A model generated the notes under the pieces. It ran no database searches and had not been told where the DNA came from. It saw only the letters and a program-made list of their open reading frames with translations. Below are positions 1 through 60,447 of a stretch of DNA of 64,000 nucleotides, one piece after another (the first letter of the stretch is position 1; every line of letters starts with the position of its first letter). A program made the position numbers and the translations under genes. This stretch comes from Bacteroidales bacterium. GTDB lineage: Bacteria; Bacteroidota; Bacteroidia; Bacteroidales; UBA932. The stretch lies in assembly GCA_017534745.1 (NCBI GenBank), contig JAFXVX010000018.1, positions 1 through 64,000 of the forward strand, in the 5' to 3' direction.

Positions 1-35
1 CTTCTGTTTTCGGCCAGAAGGCCGAGCTCTCCGGC

Positions 36-827
36 ATGAATCTGTTCGTGCGTCTGAATGTTAATCGCGTGATGGCCGGAGAAAGTATGAACTTGAATGC
101 GCCAGAGTTTCTCGATTCCGTTCCTACCGCTTCCTATCGGCTGGTCGTTGTATCGCCGTCTATGATAATCTTCCAGGGCATCAAACATCAGTCCCTGCCG
201 AATAAGTTGGTCGTGAAGATGTCTTCGGCCATGAGCCCTGGCATCTCTAATGGCTGGAGCAAGACGGTGATCATCTCTCCCAACGCGGAGGATGACTGGG
301 GCGAAGCGGACCTAACTACGCTCTATACCAAGACTATTGGTGCAACGCCAGTGGTGGGGCAGAAGGTGTTCGTGGAAGTGTATTGGATGAACACGACTAC
401 CGGCGAGACGGGTCAGGAGATGCGGGATTCCGTTATCTGCTTGACGGACGAAGAAGCAGCCGCTTTGGTTGGTGGTTCCCGCGCACGTTACACTGAGGAA
501 GATATCAAGGAAGAAAGCTATGTGTCTGATTTTGACTTGGAGTACTCTACTGGCGGGCCGGCTGTAAATGTTGACATCATTAGCCAGGGAACACCGGGCG
601 TGTCCATGTCGGAAGTATTTTTGAAAGAACAGATTCCGGCCGACCGACTTGGAAAGATCTACGTTGTTAGTCGTTCCCTCCAAGAAGGGAAATATTATTT
701 CGGTCTGGTGGAAATGAATGTAAACAACACTTCCTATTACGGACCGTACATCAAAATCAATAACTACGCCGGCGGAATGTTCAAGCCCTGCGAGATTTTC
801 GGCCCCGGTATTATGCTCCCTCTTTAA
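36..827 (+). CDS. hypothetical protein; the reading frame stays open back to the window edge, so it may be 5'-truncated. First gene of the left-edge phage-like module
   Basis: 263-codon ORF with no in-frame stop back to position 3. Lower GC (about 50%) than the rest of the chromosome. No recognisable catalytic motif. Confidence 0.45.
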   Translation: MNLFVRLNVNRVMAGESMNLNAPEFLDSVPTASYRLVVVSPSMIIFQGIKHQSLPNKLVVKMSSAMSPGISNGWSKTVIISPNAEDDWGEADLTTLYTKTIGATPVVGQKVFVEVYWMNTTTGETGQEMRDSVICLTDEEAAALVGGSRARYTEEDIKEESYVSDFDLEYSTGGPAVNVDIISQGTPGVSMSEVFLKEQIPADRLGKIYVVSRSLQEGKYYFGLVEMNVNNTSYYGPYIKINNYAGGMFKPCEIFGPGIMLPL

Positions 828-839
828 TCGATTTGGACT

Positions 840-1964
840 ATGTTTAATGCAATAGGAAATAACTTTGGCGCCGGTGAGATTCGATTTAAGTCTTACCAGC
901 AACCTACTTACGTCATTCTGAATACTCGCTTCTTTATGGATCCGACTACTCCGGAGTATCAAGCTGCAGACGTACTGGAAATCACGGTGCCTAAGCTTTC
1001 TATAGACCGAAGCGCGAATAGTGTTGCGCTGATTGTATTCCGTGACAGGCGACAGAGTTATGGGTCTGCGGATTCTTATGATGCAGGTTCAGCGGCCCGT
1101 AGTTGGATCAAAGACGATCACACCATCTGTATTGAAAAGTTGGCTTGTATGGAAGGGAAAGGTAAACTGTGCGTATATATCTATTCGATGTATATCCAGC
1201 TGAATCAAGGTCTTCCCGCAGAACGTCACAGCAAGCTTGCCCTGAACGTGACGCCTTCTCCCATTTGCTGCGAGTTCTATAGAGATTCCTTTATTGTCGT
1301 GAAGGAAAAATGGGTATTCCTGTATATCGGGAAGGGAACAACGCCTTCTGGTGGTTCATATCAGCCCTGGGAGGGCGTGGTTGATAACCTTCCAACAGAT
1401 ATCCAGGCTATTGTCCCTTTCTATGGCGGCAACAACCAGTATAATAATAATTATACATCTATTTCCGAGGTAACACTGAAAGCCGGAAAGTATATCCATC
1501 CATATCGGACACCCTCTAACTCTGGAACTGGCATATTCGGCTATTTTGTCAGGGGGGATAATCAGGGAGAAGTAATCCCGGATATTCCAATGGCCGACGA
1601 TGTCACCCGGTGTCGTTTAATAATCAAGAATGAAGAGACGATGACTTCCTCATACGAGGCTGATTTTGTGATTGAGGGCTGTACTGGACCCATAAACGTT
1701 GGAGTTGTTGGGAAATTCGTTTCTCCAGGTGTTAACAATTATGCAGGTTATAATCTTAATGAGCAGTCGAAAAAGATTCCCGGTGGCAGTTTTAGTGTGG
1801 TATGTCGCACGAATGCTGGTCATAAGCTTGCCATCTATGATGCGTTTAGTTATTCTGAACTGAACAACTCCCAGAGAAATATCACCTGTCGCTGTTCGGC
1901 AGCCCGTTATGAGGAAGTAGAGGTTTTTGATACCAGTGTCTATACTTATAGTGGAACTAGATAA
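840..1964 (+). CDS. hypothetical protein, paralog A (N-terminal GNNFGxG domain with a long variable C-terminus)
   Basis: 374-aa ORF 13 nt after the previous gene. Its N-terminal ~70 aa (MFNAIGNNFGAG...AADVLEITVPKLSI) resemble the N-terminus of the next ORF (MLTIVGNNFGGN...QATVLEIKVDGLAI). Lower GC and a Gly/Asn-rich C-terminal part. Confidence 0.55.
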   Translation: MFNAIGNNFGAGEIRFKSYQQPTYVILNTRFFMDPTTPEYQAADVLEITVPKLSIDRSANSVALIVFRDRRQSYGSADSYDAGSAARSWIKDDHTICIEKLACMEGKGKLCVYIYSMYIQLNQGLPAERHSKLALNVTPSPICCEFYRDSFIVVKEKWVFLYIGKGTTPSGGSYQPWEGVVDNLPTDIQAIVPFYGGNNQYNNNYTSISEVTLKAGKYIHPYRTPSNSGTGIFGYFVRGDNQGEVIPDIPMADDVTRCRLIIKNEETMTSSYEADFVIEGCTGPINVGVVGKFVSPGVNNYAGYNLNEQSKKIPGGSFSVVCRTNAGHKLAIYDAFSYSELNNSQRNITCRCSAARYEEVEVFDTSVYTYSGTR

Positions 1965-1977
1965 AATGTAAGGTAAC

Positions 1978-2691
1978 ATGTTGACGATTGTTGGAAATAA
2001 CTTTGGAGGAAACTGCACCGGCCAGCAGCTGAAAGTGGTCCAGGATAAGTACCATGCAGTTGTAAATGGTTCCATTACCGTGGATACGAGCCAAGCCGCC
2101 TACAAGCAGGCTACTGTGCTGGAGATTAAAGTGGATGGACTGGCCATTAAGAATAGCGGGCCCGCTGCAGTATACGCGACCATGTTTTATGGCGGTATTC
2201 ATCGCATTACTGTTGTAAGGGCTTGGTTCGAGGATCAGGAAACGCTTCGCCTCGAGAAGGTCCTTGGCTGGCCGGAGAATTGCCAGTATCAGCTAACTTT
2301 CCAATGCCTGTTTATTCCTTTCGGTTTAGACTGCCTTGCCTATTACCAGAGAAAAACTGACGTTGCCCTGTCCGGAGCACCGGAGGGTTTCCTCATCTTC
2401 AACTCCAATGTGAAGTTGTTTGATGACTGGGCATTTTTTTTCATCACCTTCGAGAGATTTGCGACAGCTGAGCCGGAGACCCCGATTAACCTCACCCTGA
2501 CGGGCCTCACCGAAGACATCGAGCACGATTTCTTCCTGGTCTATAATGACCCGACCCTGGAGGAGTATGGTAGCGGCTATGTGGATCTGTCCCTGGTCGG
2601 GAACAGCCTTCTGATTGAAGATGGCCTTCCCGCACTGGCGAACGCAGCTGCCGGCCGGAAGTTCATCAAGGGAGCAGTAATATACGAATAG
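1978..2691 (+). CDS. hypothetical protein, paralog B (shared N-terminal domain, different C-terminus)
   Basis: 237-aa ORF whose N-terminal domain is paralogous to the 840-1964 product and whose C-terminal region is unrelated. Confidence 0.55.
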   Translation: MLTIVGNNFGGNCTGQQLKVVQDKYHAVVNGSITVDTSQAAYKQATVLEIKVDGLAIKNSGPAAVYATMFYGGIHRITVVRAWFEDQETLRLEKVLGWPENCQYQLTFQCLFIPFGLDCLAYYQRKTDVALSGAPEGFLIFNSNVKLFDDWAFFFITFERFATAEPETPINLTLTGLTEDIEHDFFLVYNDPTLEEYGSGYVDLSLVGNSLLIEDGLPALANAAAGRKFIKGAVIYE

Positions 2692-2694
2692 GAT

Positions 2695-2943
2695 ATGGCA
2701 CGTCAGGAACTCACAAAGCTTCAGGGCGCCATTGCCATCGCCAGCTTCTCTGCAGGAGTGCTGATTGCAATGGTGTGCCTGTTCTTCATCGAGCCCTTGG
2801 GCGAGATAGCCTCATCTGCCATCTCCATAGTGAGTGAGCTCCTGGTCCTGTGCGGTGCCATCCTGGGCGTAAAGGCCAGTTACGATACCAAGTTCCGGAA
2901 ATTTGAAAATGAACTTCGGCACAAGGCCGACAAACCTGAATAA
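2695..2943 (+). CDS. small two-TM membrane protein (holin-like topology)
   Basis: 82 aa with two hydrophobic helices (AIAIASFSAGVLIAMVCLFFI and ISIVSELLVLCGAILGV) and a charged C-terminus (KFRKFENELRHKADKPE). It starts 4 nt after the upstream gene. Confidence 0.45.
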   Translation: MARQELTKLQGAIAIASFSAGVLIAMVCLFFIEPLGEIASSAISIVSELLVLCGAILGVKASYDTKFRKFENELRHKADKPE

Positions 2944-2954
2944 GAACTTAACCT

Positions 2955-3428
2955 ATGAGATACGTTCTGCCACTGCTTTTCCTCGTGCTCGCTTCTGCCT
3001 GCAGTACTGTCCGCCAGCTTCCATCGACGGACAGTACCAAGGTGGAGGTCCGGACGGAGACGGTGTTCCAGAAGGATACTGTCTTTGTGGAGCTGCCGCT
3101 TGTTGTGGAGCGGGTCGCAGTCCTGGATACGGTCTCGCATCTGGAGAACGCCTATGCGGCTTCATCGGCCGTGGTTTCCGGCGGAGTCCTGAAGCACAGC
3201 CTGGAGACGAAGCCCGTGAAGATGCCGGCGGTTGTTGACAAAGAGATTGTGTATCGGGATTCCTTAATATATAGAGACCGGGTGCAGACCGTGACGGTTG
3301 AAGTGGAGCGCAAGTTGACCGGCTGGCAGCAGGCTAAGCTGAGGGTAGGGGGCTTCTGTTTCTTTGCTGTGATTTTGATTGGACTTTATTTCCTTATTAC
3401 TCAATTTATCAACCTTAAACTCTTCTGA
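2955..3428 (+). CDS. lipoprotein with a C-terminal transmembrane helix (unimolecular-spanin-like topology)
   Basis: 157 aa with an N-terminal lipoprotein signal (LLFLVLASAC-S) and a C-terminal hydrophobic helix (GGFCFFAVILIGLYFLITQFI). This topology matches u-spanins of phage lysis cassettes. Confidence 0.45.
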   Translation: MRYVLPLLFLVLASACSTVRQLPSTDSTKVEVRTETVFQKDTVFVELPLVVERVAVLDTVSHLENAYAASSAVVSGGVLKHSLETKPVKMPAVVDKEIVYRDSLIYRDRVQTVTVEVERKLTGWQQAKLRVGGFCFFAVILIGLYFLITQFINLKLF

Positions 3429-3430
3429 CT

Positions 3431-4123
3431 ATGAAGTACATTCCTTCCATCGCCTTCGAGGAGATGAGCGGCAGCGCCAAGGGCGTTACGGCCGCAAAGA
3501 TGAAGAACCGGAAGTACATCCGCAACCGCGGGTACGGCGGCAGCGTCCGCACTTCCGACCAGGCCAAGGTCAAGGGCATTTTCAAGCGCCTGACCACGAT
3601 GTGGAAAACGCTCACCAACGAGCAGATCCTCGCGTGGAACAAGCTTGCCCTGAGCCAGCAGGGCCGTTCTGTCCTGGGAACCGGCGCCAAGATCTCCGGC
3701 TCCAACCTGTTCACCCGCCTCAATTACTGGATCGTCGCTTGCGGCGGCCAGCCCGAGGTGACCCCTCCCACGCTCCTGGGCGTGGAGAACCCGTCCAGCG
3801 CCACCATCGTGTGCCAGGGCAATACCTTTACCTTCAAGCTGGACCAGGCTCTCGCTGATAACGGCGGCATCTTCCTGGTCATCGAAGCCACCGAAGGTCA
3901 GTCCAATGGCGTAAGCCGCGCCCACAGCAAGGCCGTTGCCATCAAGATGGTGGAAGAGCCCACCGCGGTCGCCATCGACATCCGTGCCGACTACGTGGCC
4001 AAGAACGGTGCTCCCAGCGCCGCAGCGCCGAAGATTTTCTTCCGCTACTACTACGTCAACTCCAGCACCGGCGAGAAGTCCGGCACCATGCTGGCGGAGT
4101 GCAAGTGGACTCCGGGGGCCTAA
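3431..4123 (+). CDS. hypothetical protein (GC3-rich)
   Basis: 230-aa ORF directly following with a 2-nt gap. Very high third-position GC, unlike ORFs 1-3. No motif recognised. It is followed by a terminator. Confidence 0.5.
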   Translation: MKYIPSIAFEEMSGSAKGVTAAKMKNRKYIRNRGYGGSVRTSDQAKVKGIFKRLTTMWKTLTNEQILAWNKLALSQQGRSVLGTGAKISGSNLFTRLNYWIVACGGQPEVTPPTLLGVENPSSATIVCQGNTFTFKLDQALADNGGIFLVIEATEGQSNGVSRAHSKAVAIKMVEEPTAVAIDIRADYVAKNGAPSAAAPKIFFRYYYVNSSTGEKSGTMLAECKWTPGA

Positions 4124-4175
4124 TCAAAGGCCATCCTCAATTCTTGCCCTTTTAACGGGCGAGGGGACAAAAAGA

Positions 4176-4210
4176 TTTCCTGCCTTCCTTTCGGGGGGCA
4201 GGATTTTTTT
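4176..4210 (+). terminator. rho-independent terminator (7-bp stem TCCTGCC/GGCAGGA followed by T7)
   Basis: The hairpin followed by TTTTTTT is seen directly in the sequence, downstream of the 3431-4123 ORF. Confidence 0.55.
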
Positions 4211-4307
4211 GTGTATTTCCAGACGTATGGCGTGGCGGGTTCCCGGATAGTTCACCGGTCGGACCCGCCCAAAAGCAATCAAAGTATAGGGGAGGATAGT
4301 AAAAGAA

Positions 4308-4353
4308 ATTACGCATAAATTCAGCAAGTTTTATGCGTAAATTTATGCGTAAG
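4308..4353. repeat. 13-bp inverted repeat ATTACGCATAAAT / TTTATGCGTAAAT followed by a direct copy TTATGCGTAAG; candidate protein-binding or att-associated site
   Basis: Seen directly in the sequence: inverted copies at 4308-4320 and 4330-4342 and a direct copy at 4343-4353, about 35 nt from the tRNA-Ala 3' end. Confidence 0.4.
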
Positions 4354-4386
4354 TGCCTTAAGTGACTGATTTTCAGTCTGTTCCGT

Positions 4387-4459
4387 GGAGCATAGGAGAA
4401 TCGAACTCCTGACCTTTTGAATGCCATTCAAACGCTCTACCAACTGAGCTAATACCCCG
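4387..4459 (-). tRNA. tRNA-Ala (anticodon GGC)
   Basis: Reverse complement GGGGTATTAGCTCAGTTGGTAGAGCGTTTGAATGGCATTCAAAAGGTCAGGAGTTCGATTCTCCTATGCTCCA. 7-bp acceptor stem with a G3:U70 pair (Ala identity element), GCTCAGTTGGTAGAGC D-arm, anticodon loop AT-GGC-AT, GGTTCGATTCC T-arm. CCA is not encoded. Confidence 0.85.
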
Positions 4460-4614
4460 TTTCCCTTGAATGGGATTGCAAAGGTAAGTCATTTTTTTTG
4501 TTTTGCAAATTTTTGTGTGAATTTTTTTGTTACAGTCATGCATAGCTATGCCTGAAAGGGCTATTTTCAGGTTTATCCGCGTACAATTTTTTTACATGGA
4601 TAAATCTTCATTTA

Positions 4615-5550
4615 TTGGGCGAAATATTTTGGGCTATGCAAACAAAAGGCGATTTTTTCGAGCGGGAGCGGGAGTGCGAACGCTTATTTGAGGCGGCAGG
4701 GCCGTTCTGGTTTTTTACGACAGAGGGGCTGGACCGGCTTTTATACAGTAGCCGGGAGGAGTTTATCGCCGGAACGAATATCCTTGCTATATCGGCGGCG
4801 AAATCCGGAGTGACTGTCATCAGCGACACACAGATGAGCAATCACCATCATGTGATGGCCAGGGGATCGTTGTCACAGGCCGGAGCATTCAGGGAAATAT
4901 TCCGGGATAAGAGCCGGAGATACCAGTTGGCTCTGGGTAACAAGTCGTTGAAGGACTGGGACATCCGGATAGACGCGACCGAAGATGTGAAGGCTTTCAG
5001 AAACCGTATCGTATATATCGACCGAAATGCCTACGTCGCCCGCCGGGACAGCACCCCGACTGGTTATCCGTGGGGATCCGGGCACCTGATGTTCAACGGC
5101 ACACTCTGGATGATGTCGGAAGGCTCTCCGTGGGGGACGCTCAGTATTGATAAACGGCGTTGCATATGCCGTTCACACGATATTGATCTGCCCTCCTCTT
5201 ACCGGGTGCTTGACGGGATGATTCTCCGGAGCAGTTTTATAGATTATCAGCAGACAGAATCCCTGTTCCACAGCGCAAATCAGTATTTTTCCCTCCTGTC
5301 CCGGCACGGAGAGTCCGACGTGGAAATCGCGCAAATGCTTGGCGAGGGGATTCAGCTTCCGAACGAGGAGGTGTTCCAGATCGTGGCGCAGTGGCACCGT
5401 GGACGGTCATTGAGGGAGCTTACGCCGGTTGAAAAGGCCCTCGCGGCGAAGCGGATGAAACTGCGCCTCTCCTCCTCCAACAAGCAAATTACCCAGGTGC
5501 TGCAACTCCCCCCGGAGGAGGTTGAGCGCCTGTTCCCGGTGCCGCGGTAG
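4615..5550 (+). mobile_element. IS200/RAYT-like Y1 (HUH) tyrosine transposase domain protein with a ~150-aa C-terminal extension
   Basis: 311-aa ORF. Motifs align with E. coli RayT/TnpA(REP): GPFWFFTTEG vs GTWFFTVNL (N-terminal beta-strand), NHHHVMA vs EHMHCIW (HUH region), IVYIDRNAYVARR...GYPWGSG vs YIYINPVKHGWV...DWPFSTF (catalytic Tyr helix and YPW motif). Spacing between motifs is about 55 aa. Confidence 0.6.
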
Positions 5551-53948: not shown

Positions 53949-54878
53949 TTATATATCTTCATACAGCTTAGCGGCTTTTTTGTGTTCATCGGCGACGGCG
54001 GAGCGGAGGGAGGAGGGGGAGAGGACCTCGATGCGGGGGCCGCGGCGGCAGAGTTCCATAATGAAATCCTCGTTGGGGATGAGGAAGATGCGGAAAATGG
54101 AACTGCCGTCGGGAAGGGTCTCTTCCAGCTCCTGGGTCGGGTGGATGGGCAGGTCCCTGAGATAGCGCGTCTCCTTCGGGGAGGCCTTGATGCGGATAAT
54201 CACGGGCTTTTCGCCCTCGTCCGGGAGATAGACTCCGTAGGATACCCTGAAAAGGCCCTCGGCATCGAAATCCTTCGGGAGGGTAAAACTCTTTCCGGTC
54301 TCCCGCAGGGAGCGGATGCGGTCGAGGCCATAGACGCGGAGAGCGTTTCTTTCCAGGCAGAAACCTATTAAGTACCAGCGCCTTGCCACCTCCTTTAGGG
54401 CATAGGGGCGGACAGTGAGAGGTTCCGCTCCGGAGGCGGTGTATTTCTCATAGCCGATGGCTATCTCGCGGCCGTCCAGCATCGCTTTCATAATGGTGGT
54501 CAGATGTCTGTGGCCGGAAGGGACTTCATCGACGGAAACCCTTCCGGAGAGCCTTTCCTTGCCGATGGAAAGGACGCTGCCGACGGTGAAGGTGTCCACC
54601 AGCCAGCGGGTCGTGGAGGTCGCGTCCAGCGAATCGTCCCCGCCGGGAATATAGTACCTGCGGGTGCGCCTGTCGCAGAGAATCTCCACCCCGAAAGCAT
54701 CCAGGATGGCGCTGCGGTGGTTGTTGAACGACCGCCTCGGGTATGCGGCGTCGTATCTATCCTCATACCTCTCCTGCAACTCCTCAAGCGACAACCCTCC
54801 CGGCCCTGCGTTGAGCAGGGTTTCCAGAAGCCATATGTATTTGTCTATCAGTTCACCAACCATCGGTATGAACGCCAA
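53949..54878 (-). CDS. WYL-domain transcriptional regulator (wHTH, WYL and C-terminal extension; BrxR/CapW-like architecture)
   Basis: 309 aa with an N-terminal winged-HTH region and a central ARRWYLIGFC WYL signature. Host-like GC (about 62%). Confidence 0.8.
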   Translation of the reverse strand: MAFIPMVGELIDKYIWLLETLLNAGPGGLSLEELQERYEDRYDAAYPRRSFNNHRSAILDAFGVEILCDRRTRRYYIPGGDDSLDATSTTRWLVDTFTVGSVLSIGKERLSGRVSVDEVPSGHRHLTTIMKAMLDGREIAIGYEKYTASGAEPLTVRPYALKEVARRWYLIGFCLERNALRVYGLDRIRSLRETGKSFTLPKDFDAEGLFRVSYGVYLPDEGEKPVIIRIKASPKETRYLRDLPIHPTQELEETLPDGSSIFRIFLIPNEDFIMELCRRGPRIEVLSPSSLRSAVADEHKKAAKLYEDI

Positions 54879-54904
54879 CTGACAAATTTACAAAAAGAAT
54901 TAGT

Positions 54905-55735
54905 TCACTCACTCAATAACTTATGTAAATTAGTCTCTTCCAGAACATTTATCTGTTCAATTGCCATTTTGTTGAGTCTTGTGGCTCTGGCGGGCTGAGA
55001 TAGCCCAAGTTTAATTAATTCCGCATTCATGCTTTCCAGATTTACCAGCACAATCAGTTGACTAAGCGTTGCGCCATCTCTGATATTCCCTTTTGCATTA
55101 GGGTTTTCATCCCGCCACATTCTGGCGGTCTTGCCGAAAAGTGCAACATTCAAGACATCAGCCTCGTTTGCGTAGATAAAGGACTGTGCACGTAAAGATA
55201 TGTCCTCTGGGATAAGGTGTACCTTTATTGCGTCAGTATGGATTCGATAGTTTATCTTTGTGAGTTCGCGACTTAGATTCCAGTTTAAGGAAAGGCGACT
55301 ATTTTCATCAGTTTTAAGTCTCTGGTAGTCTTTGACGATATAAAGTTTGAACTCTGGGGAAATCCACGATGCAAATTCAAAGGCAATATCATTGTGAGCG
55401 AAAGTGGAGGCATAGCGCCCTTGTTTTGTAATAATACCTTTTGCATTAGTCTGGTCCACCCATCTTTTGGGCGTAAGAACAAAGCTGTTCAATCCAGCCT
55501 CTTTCTCAATTGCCTCGAATTCGAGGTAATTGAATTCAGAATTATGGAGATGTTCCCATAAACCCAGAAAACGCACTGTGTTGCGCGTACGCATCCAGTT
55601 CTGAATCACGTATCCTGGATTCTCCGGTGTCTTATACCTGGCTATATCTGTCAGCGAGATAAAATCTCCCGATATCCCTCCATATTGGACTTCAACTTGA
55701 AATCCGTTTGCGTTTATATTCGATTTGCCAGCCAT
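54905..55735 (-). CDS. KilA-N domain DNA-binding protein (phage Bro/KilA-like)
   Basis: 276 aa. The N-terminal region contains the KilA-N hallmark FAHNDIAFEFASWISPEFKLYIV (compare HPDLAIAFAMWISPEF of phage P1 KilA and APSES proteins). Low GC (about 40%). Confidence 0.65.
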   Translation of the reverse strand: MAGKSNINANGFQVEVQYGGISGDFISLTDIARYKTPENPGYVIQNWMRTRNTVRFLGLWEHLHNSEFNYLEFEAIEKEAGLNSFVLTPKRWVDQTNAKGIITKQGRYASTFAHNDIAFEFASWISPEFKLYIVKDYQRLKTDENSRLSLNWNLSRELTKINYRIHTDAIKVHLIPEDISLRAQSFIYANEADVLNVALFGKTARMWRDENPNAKGNIRDGATLSQLIVLVNLESMNAELIKLGLSQPARATRLNKMAIEQINVLEETNLHKLLSE

Positions 55736-55906
55736 AATTATATGATCTTTTTCATTACCGCGAATATACCCCGTTTTGAACTTTCCTGCAAGATTCTTTT
55801 TGCTTTAAAATGAAAAAAAATTACATTTGTTCTGCCGTGAAATCGGTCCACAACTTTGTTAATATATGAATGCCGTGTGGAGCGACGGAAGGCTAATCAG
55901 GAATTT

Positions 55907-56479
55907 ATGGAGGAAAAAACGAATGTCCGATTCCTTACGGACTCAACAGATGGGAAAGACGGCGCTAAGGAGGTCATTATGGATTATGTGATCTCATGGA
56001 CTCTTCGTCGTGCCCAAAATATTTGCGCTGGAGAGAAACCAATTCTCTATAGGTATTGCAGGAAATTTCTGGGAAAACTTATTGGGCAGGAAATTTCAGA
56101 CTTTGATTTCGTAGAAGTGGAGACCTGGAAGCAGGAGTCAAGGATAGATCTTTGGGTTTGGGTTAAAGTAAATAATGTTGAACACGATATCCTTATCGAA
56201 GATAAGTATTATTCGCCTGTTCACAACGACCAGCTAAATAGATATAGAGAAGTATTTGATGACTGGATTGGGGAGAATCGGGCAGACTCAATTCGCCACT
56301 ACTGGTTATTGACGTGTTATGAACAGGGGGTGACTGATATATATGATATCGCTGTCAGGAATAGTGGTTTCAAGATATTGTTCTGGGACCAGATGCTTGA
56401 TGCGATGGGGTGTAATATTGAAGAACCTGTCAAGAGTGAAAGTGACATTTTTAATGAGTTCTGGCTGGAGAACTGGTGA
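55907..56479 (+). CDS. PD-(D/E)xK-motif putative nuclease
   Basis: Start taken at the first ATG (MEEKTN...). The ORF track uses an upstream TTG. 190 aa. Core motif ...ESRIDLWVWVKVNNVEHDILIEDKYY... gives a D-(x12)-E-D-K arrangement on predicted beta-strands, as in restriction-endonuclease-fold nucleases. Low GC. Divergent from the KilA-N gene. Confidence 0.5.
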   Translation: MEEKTNVRFLTDSTDGKDGAKEVIMDYVISWTLRRAQNICAGEKPILYRYCRKFLGKLIGQEISDFDFVEVETWKQESRIDLWVWVKVNNVEHDILIEDKYYSPVHNDQLNRYREVFDDWIGENRADSIRHYWLLTCYEQGVTDIYDIAVRNSGFKILFWDQMLDAMGCNIEEPVKSESDIFNEFWLENW

Positions 56480-56483
56480 TATT

Positions 56484-57065
56484 ATGGATAAGGAGACAGT
56501 CGGAATAATAGCGTTGATTGCGATAACGATAATTGCGTACATCGTTGCTCAGATTTTTTCTCGGAAGACAGAGTGTGTGATTCTGTATAAGTGGTATGAT
56601 TTTGCCTGCCTTTTATGGATTGCGGTCAGTCCTTTGTTTATCGGGTTAGGGAATAAGATTTTCACAGACGGAGAGATGACGTCTAAGACCGCCCTTGTCA
56701 ATCGCATTATTTTTATGATTCCAATAGCCATTTTGGTTTTGACATCAATTTTTTCCAATTTGGGGCATGGTTGGATGAGCCTGCTTTATATTTTCGTTTC
56801 CATTATGGCTAAGATTCCGTTTATAATCGGATCTTGGATAATAGCTTTTGCCTTATTTCTGACCCTTTATGCCGGCGCTTCCGCAAAGACTGATGCAAGA
56901 TATCATGACGGTACACGAAGGAATGAAAAAACAAATCGCAGAATGCGTGCAATCGCTATTTTCTTCGCAATTTTCAATCCTCTTCTGTTTGATTTGGTAA
57001 AGCCTCGTACCAATCGTGGCAAGTTAAGCGACTTTGTATATAATAGAGCAACTCGTGACCTATAA
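56484..57065 (+). CDS. 4-5-TM integral membrane protein, unknown function
   Basis: Start at MDKETVGIIALIAITIIAYIV, 4 nt after the stop of the upstream gene, giving 193 aa. Four to five hydrophobic helices and a basic C-terminal tail. Low GC. Confidence 0.55.
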   Translation: MDKETVGIIALIAITIIAYIVAQIFSRKTECVILYKWYDFACLLWIAVSPLFIGLGNKIFTDGEMTSKTALVNRIIFMIPIAILVLTSIFSNLGHGWMSLLYIFVSIMAKIPFIIGSWIIAFALFLTLYAGASAKTDARYHDGTRRNEKTNRRMRAIAIFFAIFNPLLFDLVKPRTNRGKLSDFVYNRATRDL

Positions 57066-57095
57066 GTTTTTGATATTAAACATATTTACTGGATA

Positions 57096-57773
57096 ATGAA
57101 AATTTTTGGTTTCCTTGAGACAATGGATTATAACGACGAAGTCTCCATCATTCACAGAATAGGTGGTATAATCCGTAACAAAAAAATGTCGCAATTGTCT
57201 ACTAACCGGATCGTTGTCAAAGAAATACATATGGTCCGAGTTGATTATTCACGGAAGTATTATGGTGGCAGGGAGGATCTTGAATTCACAGAAGTATGGC
57301 CATCTAAATATGGATGCATAGATATGTGGCAAGAAGAGGTTTTCGATGATAAGATATTTGAAGATGTCATAGTGGAACTTGACAAACGAGGAAGGAGAAA
57401 AACTGATAGGATTTCCAACTTGTCAGATATCTTAAAACCATTCCTTGATGCCTCAGAGACACATAAGGAGTGTAAATATTTCTTGAGTGAAATAGATGCC
57501 GAAATTGATCCGGAAATTGGCGATAATATACAGTCAATGTTTGTCCGGGTCTTTAAAAAGGCGGCAAAAGTAGTCAGCTATAGTATTGGCTTAAGGACTT
57601 ATGAATTATGCTTAACGCAGGCGCAAGATGGCTTAGTGTTTATTTTTGAGAAAGTCCCCGGGCTATTCAGTGAAAAACGTCTTCTTGAAAGCGATAGCCT
57701 GACACATCCGATGAAAAATCTTTCCGGAGAGCAATTAGCAGAAATAAGGAAAACTCTGCGCCAGTCGAATTAG
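57096..57773 (+). CDS. hypothetical acidic cytoplasmic protein
   Basis: 225-aa ORF, low GC, no recognisable motif. Last gene of the island. Its stop lies inside a GAATTAG 7-mer that is repeated at the other island boundary. Confidence 0.5.
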   Translation: MKIFGFLETMDYNDEVSIIHRIGGIIRNKKMSQLSTNRIVVKEIHMVRVDYSRKYYGGREDLEFTEVWPSKYGCIDMWQEEVFDDKIFEDVIVELDKRGRRKTDRISNLSDILKPFLDASETHKECKYFLSEIDAEIDPEIGDNIQSMFVRVFKKAAKVVSYSIGLRTYELCLTQAQDGLVFIFEKVPGLFSEKRLLESDSLTHPMKNLSGEQLAEIRKTLRQSN

Positions 57774-57775
57774 AT

Positions 57776-59896
57776 TCAGGAGATCTTGGAGTAGTCGCGG
57801 ATGGAGTATTTTTCGCGGCGGAGTTCGGCGACAAGGGGGGCATTGAGGGGAGACTCGAGGGCGGGGTCGCGCTCGAGGACGCTCGAGGCGTAGGCGCGGG
57901 CGTCGGATAGGATGAGGCTGTCCTTTGCGATGGATGCGATGTTAAGTGTCACGGGGAGGCCGCTCTGGGCGGTCCCCTCGAGGTCTCCGGGACCTCTCAT
58001 CTTCATGTCTTCCTCGGCGAGGACAAATCCATCCTCTGTCGAGCACATGAGTTCAAGCCTCTTTTTAGACTCGTTTGACACTTTCTGGCCTTTCATCAGG
58101 ATGCAGAACGACTCGTCGGAACCGCGGCCGACGCGGCCTCGCAGCTGGTGAAGCTGGCTGAGGCCGAAGCGCTCGGCGCTTTCGATGACCATCACCGAGG
58201 CGTTGGGCACGTCCACGCCGACTTCGATGACGGTCGTGGAGACGAGTATGTTGGCCCTGCCGGCGACAAAGGCGGCCATATTGAAGTTTTTCTCTTCGTT
58301 GGTCTGCTTGCCGTGGACAATGGCAACCTTGTACTGCGGGAGGGGAAAGTAGCTTACTATTTCTTCGTAGCCGCGCTCGAGGTTCTGGTAGTCCATCTTT
58401 TCGCTTTCGAAGATGAGGGGATAGACCACAAACACCTGACGGCCGGCTGCGATCTGCTTCTTCATGAAGTTGTAGAGGGCCATCCTCTTGTTCTCGCCGG
58501 CGAGAATCGTCTTGATGGGCTTCCTGCCCGGAGGCATCTCGTCGATGACTGAGACGTCGAGGTCTCCGTAAAGGGTCATCGCGAGGGTCCTGGGGATGGG
58601 GGTCGCCGTCATCACGAGGACGTGGGGCGGAGGACCGCCCGGGTTCTTGGCCCACAGGCGGGCGCGCTGATCCACGCCGAAACGGTGCTGCTCGTCGATA
58701 ATTGCGAGGCCGAGGGCCTTGAAACTGACAGTATCCTCGATGAGGGCGTGGGTCCCGACGAGGATGCTGAGGGAGCCGTCCTCAAGGCCGGCGTGGATGG
58801 CTCGCCTCGCGGCAGTCCCGGTCGAGCCGGTCAGGAGCTCGACGCGTACGCCGGTCGGCTCCAGGTATTTGGATATATTCGCAAAATGCTGCTGGGCAAG
58901 GACTTCCGTAGGGGCCATAAGGCAAGCCTGGTACCCGTTGCCGACGGCGATGAGCATCGTCAGAACCGCGACCATCGTCTTGCCGCTGCCGACGTCTCCC
59001 TGGAGGAGACGGTTCATCTGGGAGCCGCTCATAAGGTCTTCGCGGATTTCGCGGATAACCCTTTTCTGGGCTTTGGTGAGGGTAAACGGCAGGAAATCGT
59101 AGCAGCGGTTGAAGGGTTCGCCGACCTTGGGCATTACAATGCCGTTGGCCGCCCGGCTGCGGACGAATTTCTGCTTCAGGAGGGAGAGCTGAAGGAGGAA
59201 AAGCTCCTCGAACTTGAGCCTGTAAACCGCCTTGCTGAGGGCGCTGTTATCCGTCGGGAAATGGATGTTGCGCAGGGCATACTGCAGCGGAACGAGGCCC
59301 TTCTCCCTGATGACATAGTCCGGGAGGGTCTCCTCCATGGTCGGAAGCGCCAGGGAAAGCGCTTCGGCGACGAGCTTCTGGATCGTCCGGCCGGTGATGC
59401 CGGCGTTCTTGATCTTTTCGGTCGAGGAATAGACTCCGCTGATGGAAGCGTTGCCGGCTTCGCCCGGGGGCGGGGGAGAATCGATCTCAGGGTGGACTAT
59501 GTTGAGGCGTCCGTTGAAAACGGAGGGTTTGCCGAAAAAGAGGAAAGTGCTGCCCGGAGTGAGCTTCTCGGCCATCCAGCCGAGGCCTTTGAAGAAGACG
59601 AGGTCAAGCTCGCCTGTGTTGTCTGCGACCCTGACGTAGAGCCTCTTGCCGCCCTTGCCGGCACCTCCGCCCTGGACCTCGGTCTTTATAACTGTCGCGA
59701 GGATCTGGACATCGGCCATCCCGGGCTCCAGGGAGCCGATTTTGTGGATTACGCCGCGGTCTATGTAACGGAAAGGGTAGAAGCGCAGGAGGTCTCCGAC
59801 CGTCTCAAGGCCAAGCTCCGCCTTGAGGAGTGCAGCTCTTTTTGGCCCCACTCCGTGGAGGAACTGGATTTCCATTGTCTGAGGCGATCGACCCAT
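57776..59896 (-). CDS. recG: ATP-dependent DNA helicase RecG
   Basis: 706 aa with N-terminal wedge domain and helicase motifs (DVGSGKT Walker A, DEQHRFG DEAH box, motif VI QLRGRVGRG). Confidence 0.9.
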   Translation of the reverse strand: MGRSPQTMEIQFLHGVGPKRAALLKAELGLETVGDLLRFYPFRYIDRGVIHKIGSLEPGMADVQILATVIKTEVQGGGAGKGGKRLYVRVADNTGELDLVFFKGLGWMAEKLTPGSTFLFFGKPSVFNGRLNIVHPEIDSPPPPGEAGNASISGVYSSTEKIKNAGITGRTIQKLVAEALSLALPTMEETLPDYVIREKGLVPLQYALRNIHFPTDNSALSKAVYRLKFEELFLLQLSLLKQKFVRSRAANGIVMPKVGEPFNRCYDFLPFTLTKAQKRVIREIREDLMSGSQMNRLLQGDVGSGKTMVAVLTMLIAVGNGYQACLMAPTEVLAQQHFANISKYLEPTGVRVELLTGSTGTAARRAIHAGLEDGSLSILVGTHALIEDTVSFKALGLAIIDEQHRFGVDQRARLWAKNPGGPPPHVLVMTATPIPRTLAMTLYGDLDVSVIDEMPPGRKPIKTILAGENKRMALYNFMKKQIAAGRQVFVVYPLIFESEKMDYQNLERGYEEIVSYFPLPQYKVAIVHGKQTNEEKNFNMAAFVAGRANILVSTTVIEVGVDVPNASVMVIESAERFGLSQLHQLRGRVGRGSDESFCILMKGQKVSNESKKRLELMCSTEDGFVLAEEDMKMRGPGDLEGTAQSGLPVTLNIASIAKDSLILSDARAYASSVLERDPALESPLNAPLVAELRREKYSIRDYSKIS

Positions 59897-59940
59897 ACCC
59901 CGACAAGATACAAAAAAATTGCTTAAATTTGCCCTCCGGG

Positions 59941-60447
59941 ATGGAAAGTCTTGTAATTAATAACGACGAATTCTTCGCAAGCGTGCTCGAATGCCTCTCA
60001 AAGGGCAGCGACGCGACAATTCCCGTCAAGGGATTCAGCATGCTTCCGTTTATCCGTGCGGAGAAGGATCTCGTGGTGCTTGGCACCGTGGACGAGCTGC
60101 GGGAGAAGGACATCGTCCTTTTCCGCTACTGCGGCCGCTATGTCATGCACAGGATTATTTCAATCGACGGCGACAAGGTAGAGATCATGGGCGACGGGGT
60201 GCCGGAGAACCGTGAACGGGTGACCCGTTCCGACATCTGCGCCAAGGCCAAGGCCATTCTCCGCGGCGGGAAGCGCCGGAGAGACCCCTACAGCCGTTTA
60301 AGCCTGTGGCTTTTTGACCGCTGGTACTCGCTGCTTCCCGTAAGAAGTTATCTATTGTGGATTTACAGGCGTCTGCCCTGGAACTATTTCTGGCTCAGGC
60401 GTCAGTCAAGGGCTGCCGTCAGAGAGCAGAACGCAGAAACTCTTTGA
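59941..60447 (+). CDS. S24/S26-like (LexA/signal-peptidase-fold) peptidase domain protein
   Basis: Start at MESLVINN, giving 168 aa. The VKGFSMLPFI Ser-nucleophile motif and a downstream Lys candidate (REKDIVLFRY...) suggest a Ser/Lys dyad. No TM helix and no HTH. Confidence 0.5.
   Translation: MESLVINNDEFFASVLECLSKGSDATIPVKGFSMLPFIRAEKDLVVLGTVDELREKDIVLFRYCGRYVMHRIISIDGDKVEIMGDGVPENRERVTRSDICAKAKAILRGGKRRRDPYSRLSLWLFDRWYSLLPVRSYLLWIYRRLPWNYFWLRRQSRAAVREQNAETL

Follow-up and report, generated by a model that had tools for sequence, protein, structure and literature searches.

Structure of the islet

The DNA described here is a stretch of 64,000 nucleotides from a Bacteroidales bacterium (contig JAFXVX010000018.1, positions 1 to 64,000), referred to below as the window. 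Between recG and the gene of a regulator with a WYL domain it carries a small islet of four open reading frames (ORFs), which encode a KilA-N domain protein, a predicted PD-(D/E)xK nuclease, a membrane protein and a 225-aa protein. Their coordinates are collected in Table 1. An earlier note on this DNA, made from the sequence alone, had described the same four ORFs, and had placed an abrupt low-GC island at 54890-57775. Both observations are confirmed. The GC content over 54879-57775 is 39.8% (0.398), against 56.4% (0.564) for the remaining window. In windows of 300 nt it is 0.58-0.61 up to about position 54800, 0.36-0.44 over 54800-57800 and about 0.59 from 57800, and the break on the WYL side falls at about 54890-54900. 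The genes show the same step individually, with values of 0.586 for the WYL gene, 0.421, 0.415, 0.399 and 0.386 for the KilA-N, nuclease, membrane protein and 225-aa genes, respectively, and 0.602 for recG. The two 1-kb bins at 55001-57000 (0.40-0.41) are the lowest of the entire window, the next lowest being 0.44.

The islet and its immediate surroundings hold no ORF and give no Pfam match for an integrase or transposase, in agreement with the earlier reading, and Pfam and PADLOC scans found no methyltransferase in the islet. The scan of the islet proteins against PADLOC-DB 2.0 matched no named defence system; the earlier note had not recognised the combination as one, and it is not one in that database.

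Table 1. Positions of the islet, its genes, the flanking core genes and sequence features in the window
Feature	Position	Strand	Remarks
Low-GC inserted islet	54879-57775		2.9 kb between recG stop and WYL gene; GC break
KilA-N gene	54905-55735	-	276 aa
Nuclease gene	55907-56479	+	190 aa from ATG; TTG start at 55856 would give 207 aa
Membrane protein gene	56484-57065	+	193 aa; start 4 nt past nuclease stop
225-aa ORF	57096-57773	+	stop 2 nt from convergent recG stop (57776)
recG, flanking core gene	57776-59896	-	ORF, Pfam domains, 65-71% identical orthologues
HTH-WYL-WCX regulator gene, flanking core gene	53949-54863	-	304 aa from ATG at 54863; native GC; Pfam WYL 3.9e-17, WCX 3.6e-12
Divergent intergenic region, KilA-N / nuclease operon	55736-55906		holds promoter consensus match
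Imperfect inverted repeat	54881-54935		15-nt arms, 87% complementary, 25-nt spacer; spans KilA-N stop and WYL 5' region
GAATTAG, left copy of 7-bp direct repeat	54897-54903	+	sequence reading
GAATTAG, right copy	57767-57773	+	overlaps stop codon of 225-aa ORF

Insertion into the recG-WYL junction

A RecG scan of 185,579 species genomes found no conspecific. The nearest RecG relatives, with 65-71% identity, belong to metagenome-assembled genomes of rumen and gut Bacteroidales. In six of these (L006, L008, L010, L012, L013 and L014) recG, the WYL gene and the gene of an S9 peptidase follow one another on a single strand. The recG stop codon overlaps the WYL ATG or lies at most 8 nt from it, the junctions being TGATG, ATGA, TAAATG and TGAnnnnnATG. 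The WYL orthologues found directly after recG in these species are about 50% identical to the window protein, one of them 37%. In the window, the recG stop and the WYL start are 2.9 kb apart. The empty site, for which the earlier note had proposed to look, is present in six species, and the segment is accessory. Because these six relatives show recG abutting the WYL gene, and because the break in GC content is sharp, the islet is an insertion: a foreign AT-rich block of 2.9 kb has been placed into the few-nucleotide junction of an ancestral recG-WYL-S9 peptidase string. The WYL gene is present at the empty sites; therefore it is a core partner of recG and is not borne by the island, and the islet has split that pair. 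The overlapping or closely spaced codons suggest that in relatives without the islet the WYL gene is probably translationally coupled to recG. In three relatives recG abuts the peptidase gene without any WYL gene.

The direct repeat GAATTAG had been considered a possible target-site duplication. Both copies are found where they were reported, but about 16% of shuffles of the two end windows also produce a shared 7-mer (P about 0.16), and therefore the repeat is no evidence of a target-site duplication. It also has no counterpart at the junctions of the relatives, in which the spacer of the empty site measures 0-8 nt and CTAATTC is not present. The recG junction was considered as a hotspot for cargo as well. 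The extra DNA found there in L009 and L027 is housekeeping sequence of native GC content and not alternative defence cargo; therefore the site is not a demonstrable cargo hotspot. An apparent divergence of recG in contig L004 involves only the final 70 nt of the contig and was discounted as an artefact of the assembly end.

Look-ups of the exact sequences of the islet proteins and the WYL protein returned only metagenome contigs of the same species, with the same context and always filled. The combination of four genes is found by exact-protein look-ups in this species only.

The nuclease

The 190-aa protein is matched by the Pfam family PF14281 (PDDEXK_4) at E 3.8e-5 and 24.2 bits, the gathering score being 22.3, which is a marginal assignment. 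A precomputed match with the same family exists for 23 of its 78 homologues, and the NCBI name of an identical protein is PD-(D/E)xK nuclease. Nearly all of the homologues are 176-235 aa in length (few are longer or fragmentary), and almost all are metagenomic. In an alignment of 40 sequences, 36-70% identical, residues Glu22, Asp81, Glu98, Lys100 and Gln109 are invariant and Tyr113 is found in at least 90%, forming a QxxxY motif. The catalytic spacing is D81-x16-E98-D-K100, which corrects the spacing D-x12-E-D-K read previously. Two further conserved motifs of the alignment, DSxExKDG near the N-terminus and SESDIFNEFW near the C-terminus, are specific to the family. The AlphaFold2 (AF2) model of the protein is confident, with a predicted local distance difference test (pLDDT) of 90.2 and a predicted template modelling score (pTM) of 0.88, and it has the alpha/beta core fold of restriction endonucleases. 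The structure prediction proposed as a check of the nuclease fold is thereby passed. Together, the Pfam match, the invariant catalytic residues and the model show a stand-alone PD-(D/E)xK nuclease with an intact predicted fold and active site, as had been suggested, and with a predicted activity.

The best structural match of the model in BFVD is a 200-aa PD-(D/E)xK protein of a siphovirus. Relatives of the nuclease are absent from the GenBank phage set and from the PLSDB plasmid set. PF14281 has been listed as a family of unknown function (PMC3424549), and a literature search on it found nothing relevant.

It is useful to set the islet nuclease beside known PD-(D/E)xK proteins. It has the catalytic core in common with the proteins of PF14281 and PDC-S26, which are about 400 aa long, and the PDC-S26 profiles align with it over the D...ExK segment. 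However, the islet nuclease is half as long (190 aa) and has its own N- and C-terminal motifs. It has no sequence-level membership in Shedu SduA, NucC, Card1/Can2, the nuclease domains of Hna and Upx, or the type II/IV restriction endonucleases. Unlike these effectors, it lies in an islet without a sensor domain, methyltransferase, CARF/SAVED domain or helicase, and it is accompanied by a membrane protein and an orphan.

The membrane protein and the 225-aa protein

The membrane protein of 193 residues has a pI of 9.9 and, by hydropathy, 5-6 hydrophobic segments. Its description as polytopic holds, with a segment count above the 4-5 given earlier. A word-indexed homologue search returned the identical sequence only. 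By tblastn, homologues of 34-39% identity were located directly downstream of nuclease homologues at two other loci, L086 and L097, and they share a conserved basic loop, K-x-D-x-R-[YF]-x-D-G-T-x-x-N. The order of nuclease and membrane protein homologue, with a gap of 2-8 nt, occurs in the window, at L086 and at L097, with 53-59% identity between the nucleases. Gene order and sequence similarity show that the two form a recurrent, tightly coupled pair at three independent loci. At L097 the pair alone makes up a sharply bounded islet of about 1.4 kb, with a GC content of 0.31-0.38 against 0.55-0.60 around it. A gene with RhuM/Fic domains lies immediately upstream of this two-gene islet (L097:4915-5907), with a ComM/Mg-chelatase-like gene on one side and a xanthine permease gene on the other, and with ruvB near.

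The 225-aa protein has a pI of 5.7 and contains 38 Asp and Glu residues against 34 Lys and Arg; it is acidic, as described before, but only mildly. It has no match in Pfam, PADLOC, NCBIfam, PHROG or PDB, and a word-indexed search returned identical or near-identical sequences only. A full HMMER pass over 1.84 billion representatives gave just two remote relatives, P0081 (4.8e-15) and P0082 (1.4e-4), which are related to each other at 4e-13. The profile of these three sequences produced only noise against PDB, and the single-sequence AF2 model of the 225-aa protein is unusable (pLDDT 32). The gene of P0082 starts 3 nt after a nuclease homologue, and the succession of a nuclease and a 225-aa-type protein occurs at two loci, this one and the window. 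The gene of P0081 lies 144 nt downstream of a gene with WYL and WCX domains and is followed by genes of a zinc-ribbon protein and a membrane protein. The operon formed by the nuclease, the membrane protein and the orphan is in no catalogue that was queried.

The KilA-N protein

The KilA-N domain named in the earlier note is found by Pfam at 3.3e-15 over residues 24-141 of 276. The protein also matches the PADLOC candidate family PDC-S22 over its full length (E 5.8e-125, 414 bits, residues 1-272 of 276 against positions 1-271 of 281 of the profile). This candidate-family match is what the PADLOC run suggested for the region yielded in place of a named defence system. In PHROG the protein matches family 2657, annotated as transcriptional regulator, at 1.2e-49. 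Its gene is co-directional with the WYL gene and lies 41 nt upstream of it; the WYL gene may be co-transcribed with the KilA-N gene that now precedes it.

Staphylococcus phage EW and Streptococcus satellite phages encode homologues of the KilA-N protein with 52-56% identity, the genes of which are flanked by those of the integrase and the repressor. This slot is the usual seat of lysogen-expressed exclusion genes. Others, 50-59% identical, are found on plasmids of Gammaproteobacteria, Firmicutes and Bacteroidota; on an Alistipes plasmid a homologue lies two genes from an annotated abortive-infection gene. In Parabacteroides a homologue is a solitary insertion beside ybeY. The nuclease is not found alongside the homologues in phage EW, the satellites, the plasmids or the Parabacteroides insertion. 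A single-sequence scan of IMG/VR with the protein found nothing. By these sequence identities and carriers, the family is remarkably conserved and promiscuous.

No phenotype of PDC-S22 was found in the literature searched, in which its mention is limited to co-occurrence statistics in Streptococcus suis. The islet protein agrees with this family from end to end and resembles it as a single cargo gene of phages, satellites, plasmids and islets. PDC-S22 is itself a computational candidate with a predicted role in defence, and it accounts for one of the four islet genes as already catalogued.

A comparison can also be made with BstA, a prophage abortive-infection protein with a KilA-N-like N-terminus (10.1101/2020.07.13.199331). 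Both proteins are encoded by a single gene and consist of an N-terminal KilA-N DNA-binding domain and a C-terminal domain, and both are carried by mobile elements in lysogen-expressed positions, the islet protein through its homologues. However, the islet protein is not a member of the BstA family by sequence, because PADLOC gave no match at E <= 1 except PDC-S22. PADLOC-DB contains a BstA model. BstA is also borne by prophages, together with a DNA element for self-immunity, aba, whereas no prophage genes flank the islet KilA-N gene. The analogy nevertheless suggests that the KilA-N protein probably acts on its own, in the manner of BstA.

The WYL regulator

The regulator encoded beside the islet has the winged helix-turn-helix (HTH)-WYL-WCX architecture, in which Pfam finds the WYL and WCX domains and does not detect the N-terminal HTH. 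Its relatives in PDB are PafBC (2e-14), DriD (2e-6) and CapW (6e-3); BrxR was not matched. By sequence, the protein is closer to PafBC and DriD, which are DNA-damage activators, than to CapW. BrxR and CapW are repressors of defence systems, and about 48% of the BrxR-family WYL regulators co-localise with such systems (PMC9122601). The window protein resembles this class in its WYL and WCX domains and its similarity to PafBC, DriD and CapW. It differs in being a core gene product, coupled to recG in cargo-free relatives, whose gene is not upstream of the nuclease operon: it follows the KilA-N gene and is transcribed divergently from that operon. The earlier proposal that the adjacent WYL protein is a BrxR/CapW-class regulator of the island is not upheld, given the native GC content of its gene, the coupling to recG in relatives and the closest similarity to PafBC and DriD.

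Genes of the same kind are, in fact, the commonest neighbours of the nuclease elsewhere. A total of 106 nuclease-bearing loci were collected, which form 40 groups at 85% identity, and 27 groups have enough flanking sequence. In 7 of these 27 groups a WYL paralogue is encoded no more than 3 kb from the nuclease and on its strand, upstream of it in six and downstream in one. These paralogues are 29-37% identical to the WYL protein of the window. A background of 1.42 Mb centred on recG contained no non-syntenic WYL match; this is only a rough control, because the recG-centred loci span many Bacteroidota classes. Of the two known relatives of the 225-aa protein, one is likewise directly preceded by a WYL gene. 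At such loci the arrangement is that of BrxR and CapW, the paralogue being directly upstream of, and co-directional with, the nuclease or the 225-aa relative. As to whether the island occurs beside other WYL genes, the answer is divided: the nuclease does, but the four-gene island is not found elsewhere. That the WYL protein represses this islet is only indirectly supported. Literature searches on WYL together with either Bacteroides and nuclease or recG gave no relevant result, and the recurrent pairing of WYL gene and nuclease appears to be undescribed in the searchable literature.

Some of these loci have features of their own. In human-gut loci (L104:3125-3265, also the groups of L103-L111, L115, L123, L146 and L127-L132) the WYL gene and the nuclease gene are separated by a spacer of about 400 nt with a very stable imperfect hairpin of about 130 nt. 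The 261-nt fold has -69 kcal/mol and a z of -5.3 and no Rfam match; the hairpin may be a structured RNA or an element like a miniature inverted-repeat transposable element (MITE) or a repetitive extragenic palindrome (REP). At L099 (260-3720) the WYL paralogue heads a run of nucleic-acid enzymes, in the order WYL protein, DEDDh/RNase T-type exonuclease, 220-aa unknown protein, nuclease homologue and 208-aa unknown protein. A second cassette headed by a WYL gene, at L176 (192-5965), is composed differently: a WYL and WCX protein is followed by a 231-aa protein distantly related to the 225-aa protein, then by a 340-aa protein bearing DnaJ-like CxxCxGxG zinc-ribbon repeats and a 206-aa membrane protein. 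A link between the WYL-neighbour proteins of 243 aa at L176 and 220 aa at L099 is at best marginal.

The string of recG, WYL gene and S9 peptidase gene is conserved in the rumen and gut Bacteroidales clade, and its WYL protein is closest to PafBC and DriD, which are sensors of single-stranded DNA. The recG-coupled protein may be a DNA-damage regulator in this clade.

Probable composite nature of the islet

The contexts of the nuclease relatives are very diverse. The largest group, of 21 loci, is prophage-borne; an XRE-HTH gene of 84 codons ends 3 nt before the nuclease gene, and Zorya II is found about 2 kb away. In other contexts McrBC and a GajB-like helicase are near the nuclease (L087-89), or a YafQ/ParE toxin and DUF6169 (L086), and AbiEi/Eii, PDC-S05, PDC-S23 and PDC-S48 are among the neighbours. 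Among the 150 neighbours of nuclease relatives, the 25 families with the most matches include no methyltransferase. In the IMG/VR contig L185 (4743-9853) and in the group of L142/L147/L150 the 84-aa protein encoded before the nuclease combines XRE-HTH and zinc ribbon, its best PADLOC matches being PDC-M69A and capH, and the nuclease subgroup lies about 2 kb from a complete ZorA2/ZorB2 pair. Such a region would fit a defence hotspot within a prophage.

The locus L086 has two separate low-GC islets 4.4 kb apart, one with the KilA-N gene and one with the nuclease-membrane pair. From the comparative context we infer that the islet of the window is a composite of at least two cargo units that travel separately. 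The first would be the single KilA-N gene of PDC-S22. The second would be the operon led by the small PD-(D/E)xK nuclease, which appears as its constant element, with the membrane protein and the 225-aa protein as occasional, tightly coupled partners. The four genes are probably not one system, because the KilA-N gene, a member of a single-gene family, travels alone and forms a separate islet at L086.

Predicted signals and other features of the window

The only full Bacteroidetes-type promoter consensus in the region (regular-expression scan of 54700-58000, both strands) is TTTG-N19-TAnnTTTG at 55799-55829 (+), upstream of the nuclease gene; it is a consensus match only. A -7-type box, TAAATTTG, at 54890-54883 (-), likewise a consensus match only, is located 19 nt short of the WYL ATG and overlaps the inverted repeat at 54881-54935. 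Together, the two may represent a putative promoter or operator of the WYL gene. Scans for sigma-70-type promoters and for terminators gave counts at or near shuffle expectation. The regions upstream of the nuclease relatives show no shared operator-like motif by eye, no motif-finding program having been run.

At 57771-57778 the stop codons of the 225-aa ORF and recG are convergent and 2 nt apart, with no terminator-like structure. Judging from this arrangement, the islet operon and recG should give transcripts that overlap in antisense. As there is no room for a terminator, read-through from recG would produce antisense RNA of the nuclease operon and would run into the KilA-N and WYL genes in the sense direction, which is a speculation.

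An ORF divergent from recG (59830-60447, +) has a weak Peptidase_S24-like match of 22.2 bits, just under the cut-off of 23.3. S24 is the fold of LexA, UmuD and signal peptidase, and such a protein could be of interest beside recG. At the other end of the window, positions 1-5550 form a block of lower GC content (0.44-0.52), in which the ORFs at 36-4123 have no Pfam match. The block ends at a tRNA-Ala(ggc) gene (4385-4458, -), and the next ORF, of 311 aa, is also without a match. This block may be an element integrated at a tRNA.

Possible function of the islet

A role in defence or conflict is plausible for the islet, which is a candidate only; the chance that it serves defence or exclusion we would put at slightly under even. 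In the mechanism that we propose, the nuclease would be the effector of a conflict or defence module and would cut invading DNA, or resident DNA under abortive conditions. Its activity or expression would be gated, at other loci by an upstream WYL paralogue or XRE protein and at this islet by the operon partners, perhaps together with local transcription. The membrane protein could be an anchor, a sensor or a second effector, and the 225-aa protein a modulator or an immunity partner. The KilA-N protein would be independent of them and, by analogy with BstA, may bind the DNA of a replicating invader.

A broader proposal is that the nuclease defines a new modular family, in which a WYL or XRE regulator releases a minimal effector with exchangeable partners that destroys invading DNA or aborts infection. 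The cassettes of this family in gut and rumen Bacteroidales would settle preferentially next to WYL-type regulators, the recG-linked one included. We regard this proposal as tentative and, taken as a whole, rather doubtful.

Several observations weigh against the proposed role in defence or conflict. No phenotype is available for any of the four proteins, PDC-S22 being a candidate only, and the PADLOC match of the nuclease itself is weak (PDC-S26, 3.9e-5, over about 55 residues). Many nuclease relatives are solitary among housekeeping genes, with neither a regulator or membrane partner nor defence genes beside them. Most nuclease groups are without the membrane partner, and the membrane and 225-aa partners together occur in only a handful of the approximately 40 groups. 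The WYL gene of the window is a core gene oriented unlike the loci in which a WYL gene precedes the nuclease. In addition, the closest relatives are only 65-71% identical in RecG.

An unlikely alternative is that the islet is the remnant of a decayed mobile element, for instance of the lysogeny or moron region that a prophage or satellite carries. In that case its genes would serve the element or be drifting cargo without a present role, the KilA-N protein being a regulator of the antirepressor type and the nuclease having a phage function in recombination, anti-defence or exclusion. The place of the KilA-N homologues between integrase and repressor in phage EW and the Streptococcus satellites would fit this, as would the PHROG annotation of the family as a transcriptional regulator. 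For the nuclease, a subgroup is found in IMG/VR contigs among typical phage early genes, and the best BFVD match is the siphovirus protein. No integrase or transposase is left at the islet. However, all four ORFs are intact and the nuclease retains every invariant catalytic residue. On the recG side the boundary fits to within 2 nt of the stop codon and on the WYL side to within about 41 nt of the start, no other phage genes are nearby, and at L097 the nuclease-membrane pair is a clean two-gene islet in a non-phage context. Lysogen-expressed morons are often defence genes, and because of this the remnant explanation partly overlaps with a role in defence.

The similarity of the WYL protein to PafBC and DriD, together with its coupling to recG, raises a different question, namely whether the islet is a DNA-damage or repair unit under WYL control. 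A recG-linked sensor of single-stranded DNA would switch on a structure- or damage-specific nuclease and its partners, and nuclease relatives do occur near recG and near a DEDDh exonuclease. This we consider improbable. The islet is foreign, patchy and of low GC content, unlike a core repair function, and a polytopic membrane partner would be unusual for repair. Members of the nuclease family that are carried by prophages have Zorya nearby, others are neighbours of McrBC or toxin genes, and the WYL paralogues adjacent to nucleases are only 29-37% identical to the recG-linked protein.

The earlier note had favoured a single four-gene defence system, flanked and repressed by its own BrxR/CapW-class WYL regulator. 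The four genes have a similar GC content and form one block next to a WYL gene, WYL paralogues recur beside relatives of the nuclease and of the 225-aa protein, and at L086 a KilA-N homologue is found 4.4 kb from the nuclease-membrane pair. Against this stand the restriction of the combination to this species, the solitary travel of the KilA-N gene, and the absence of BrxR from the detectable PDB relatives of the WYL protein. The WYL gene is moreover native, is present in relatives that are free of the islet, and is placed behind the KilA-N gene, with transcription away from the nuclease operon. This version is very improbable. What stands of it is the accessory segment, the KilA-N assignment and the lack of an integrase and of a match to a named system; the single system, the WYL protein as an island regulator by origin and the significance of the repeat do not.

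Finally, a free-standing homing-type endonuclease, which cuts empty intergenic sites, is copied in during repair and carries its neighbours along, can hardly be the explanation: PD-(D/E)xK homing endonucleases are known, the insertions are precise, intergenic and free of integrases, the islets here and at L097 are sharply bounded and many nuclease relatives are solitary among housekeeping genes, but the insertion sites are unrelated and revealed no target sequence common to their flanks, and homing genes would not be expected to have recurrent upstream regulators and operon partners.

Significance

To return to the role in defence or conflict, plausible candidate islets of this kind are many, and of the four genes of this one a catalogue already lists one. 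The nuclease operon, with its predicted function, varies a well-known theme, in which a regulator gates a nuclease effector carried by a small mobile islet. The defence repertoires of gut and rumen Bacteroidales are poorly charted in comparison with those of Proteobacteria. If the nuclease operon works as proposed, it would add to them a very compact effector of 190 residues with an unusual membrane partner, and the rule that WYL regulators mark defence cargo would extend to a new regulator clade. The comparison of empty sites provides a clean natural experiment, in which the same junction is seen with and without its cargo. It also exposes a conserved recG-WYL operon, which is a possible DNA-damage sensor in this clade.

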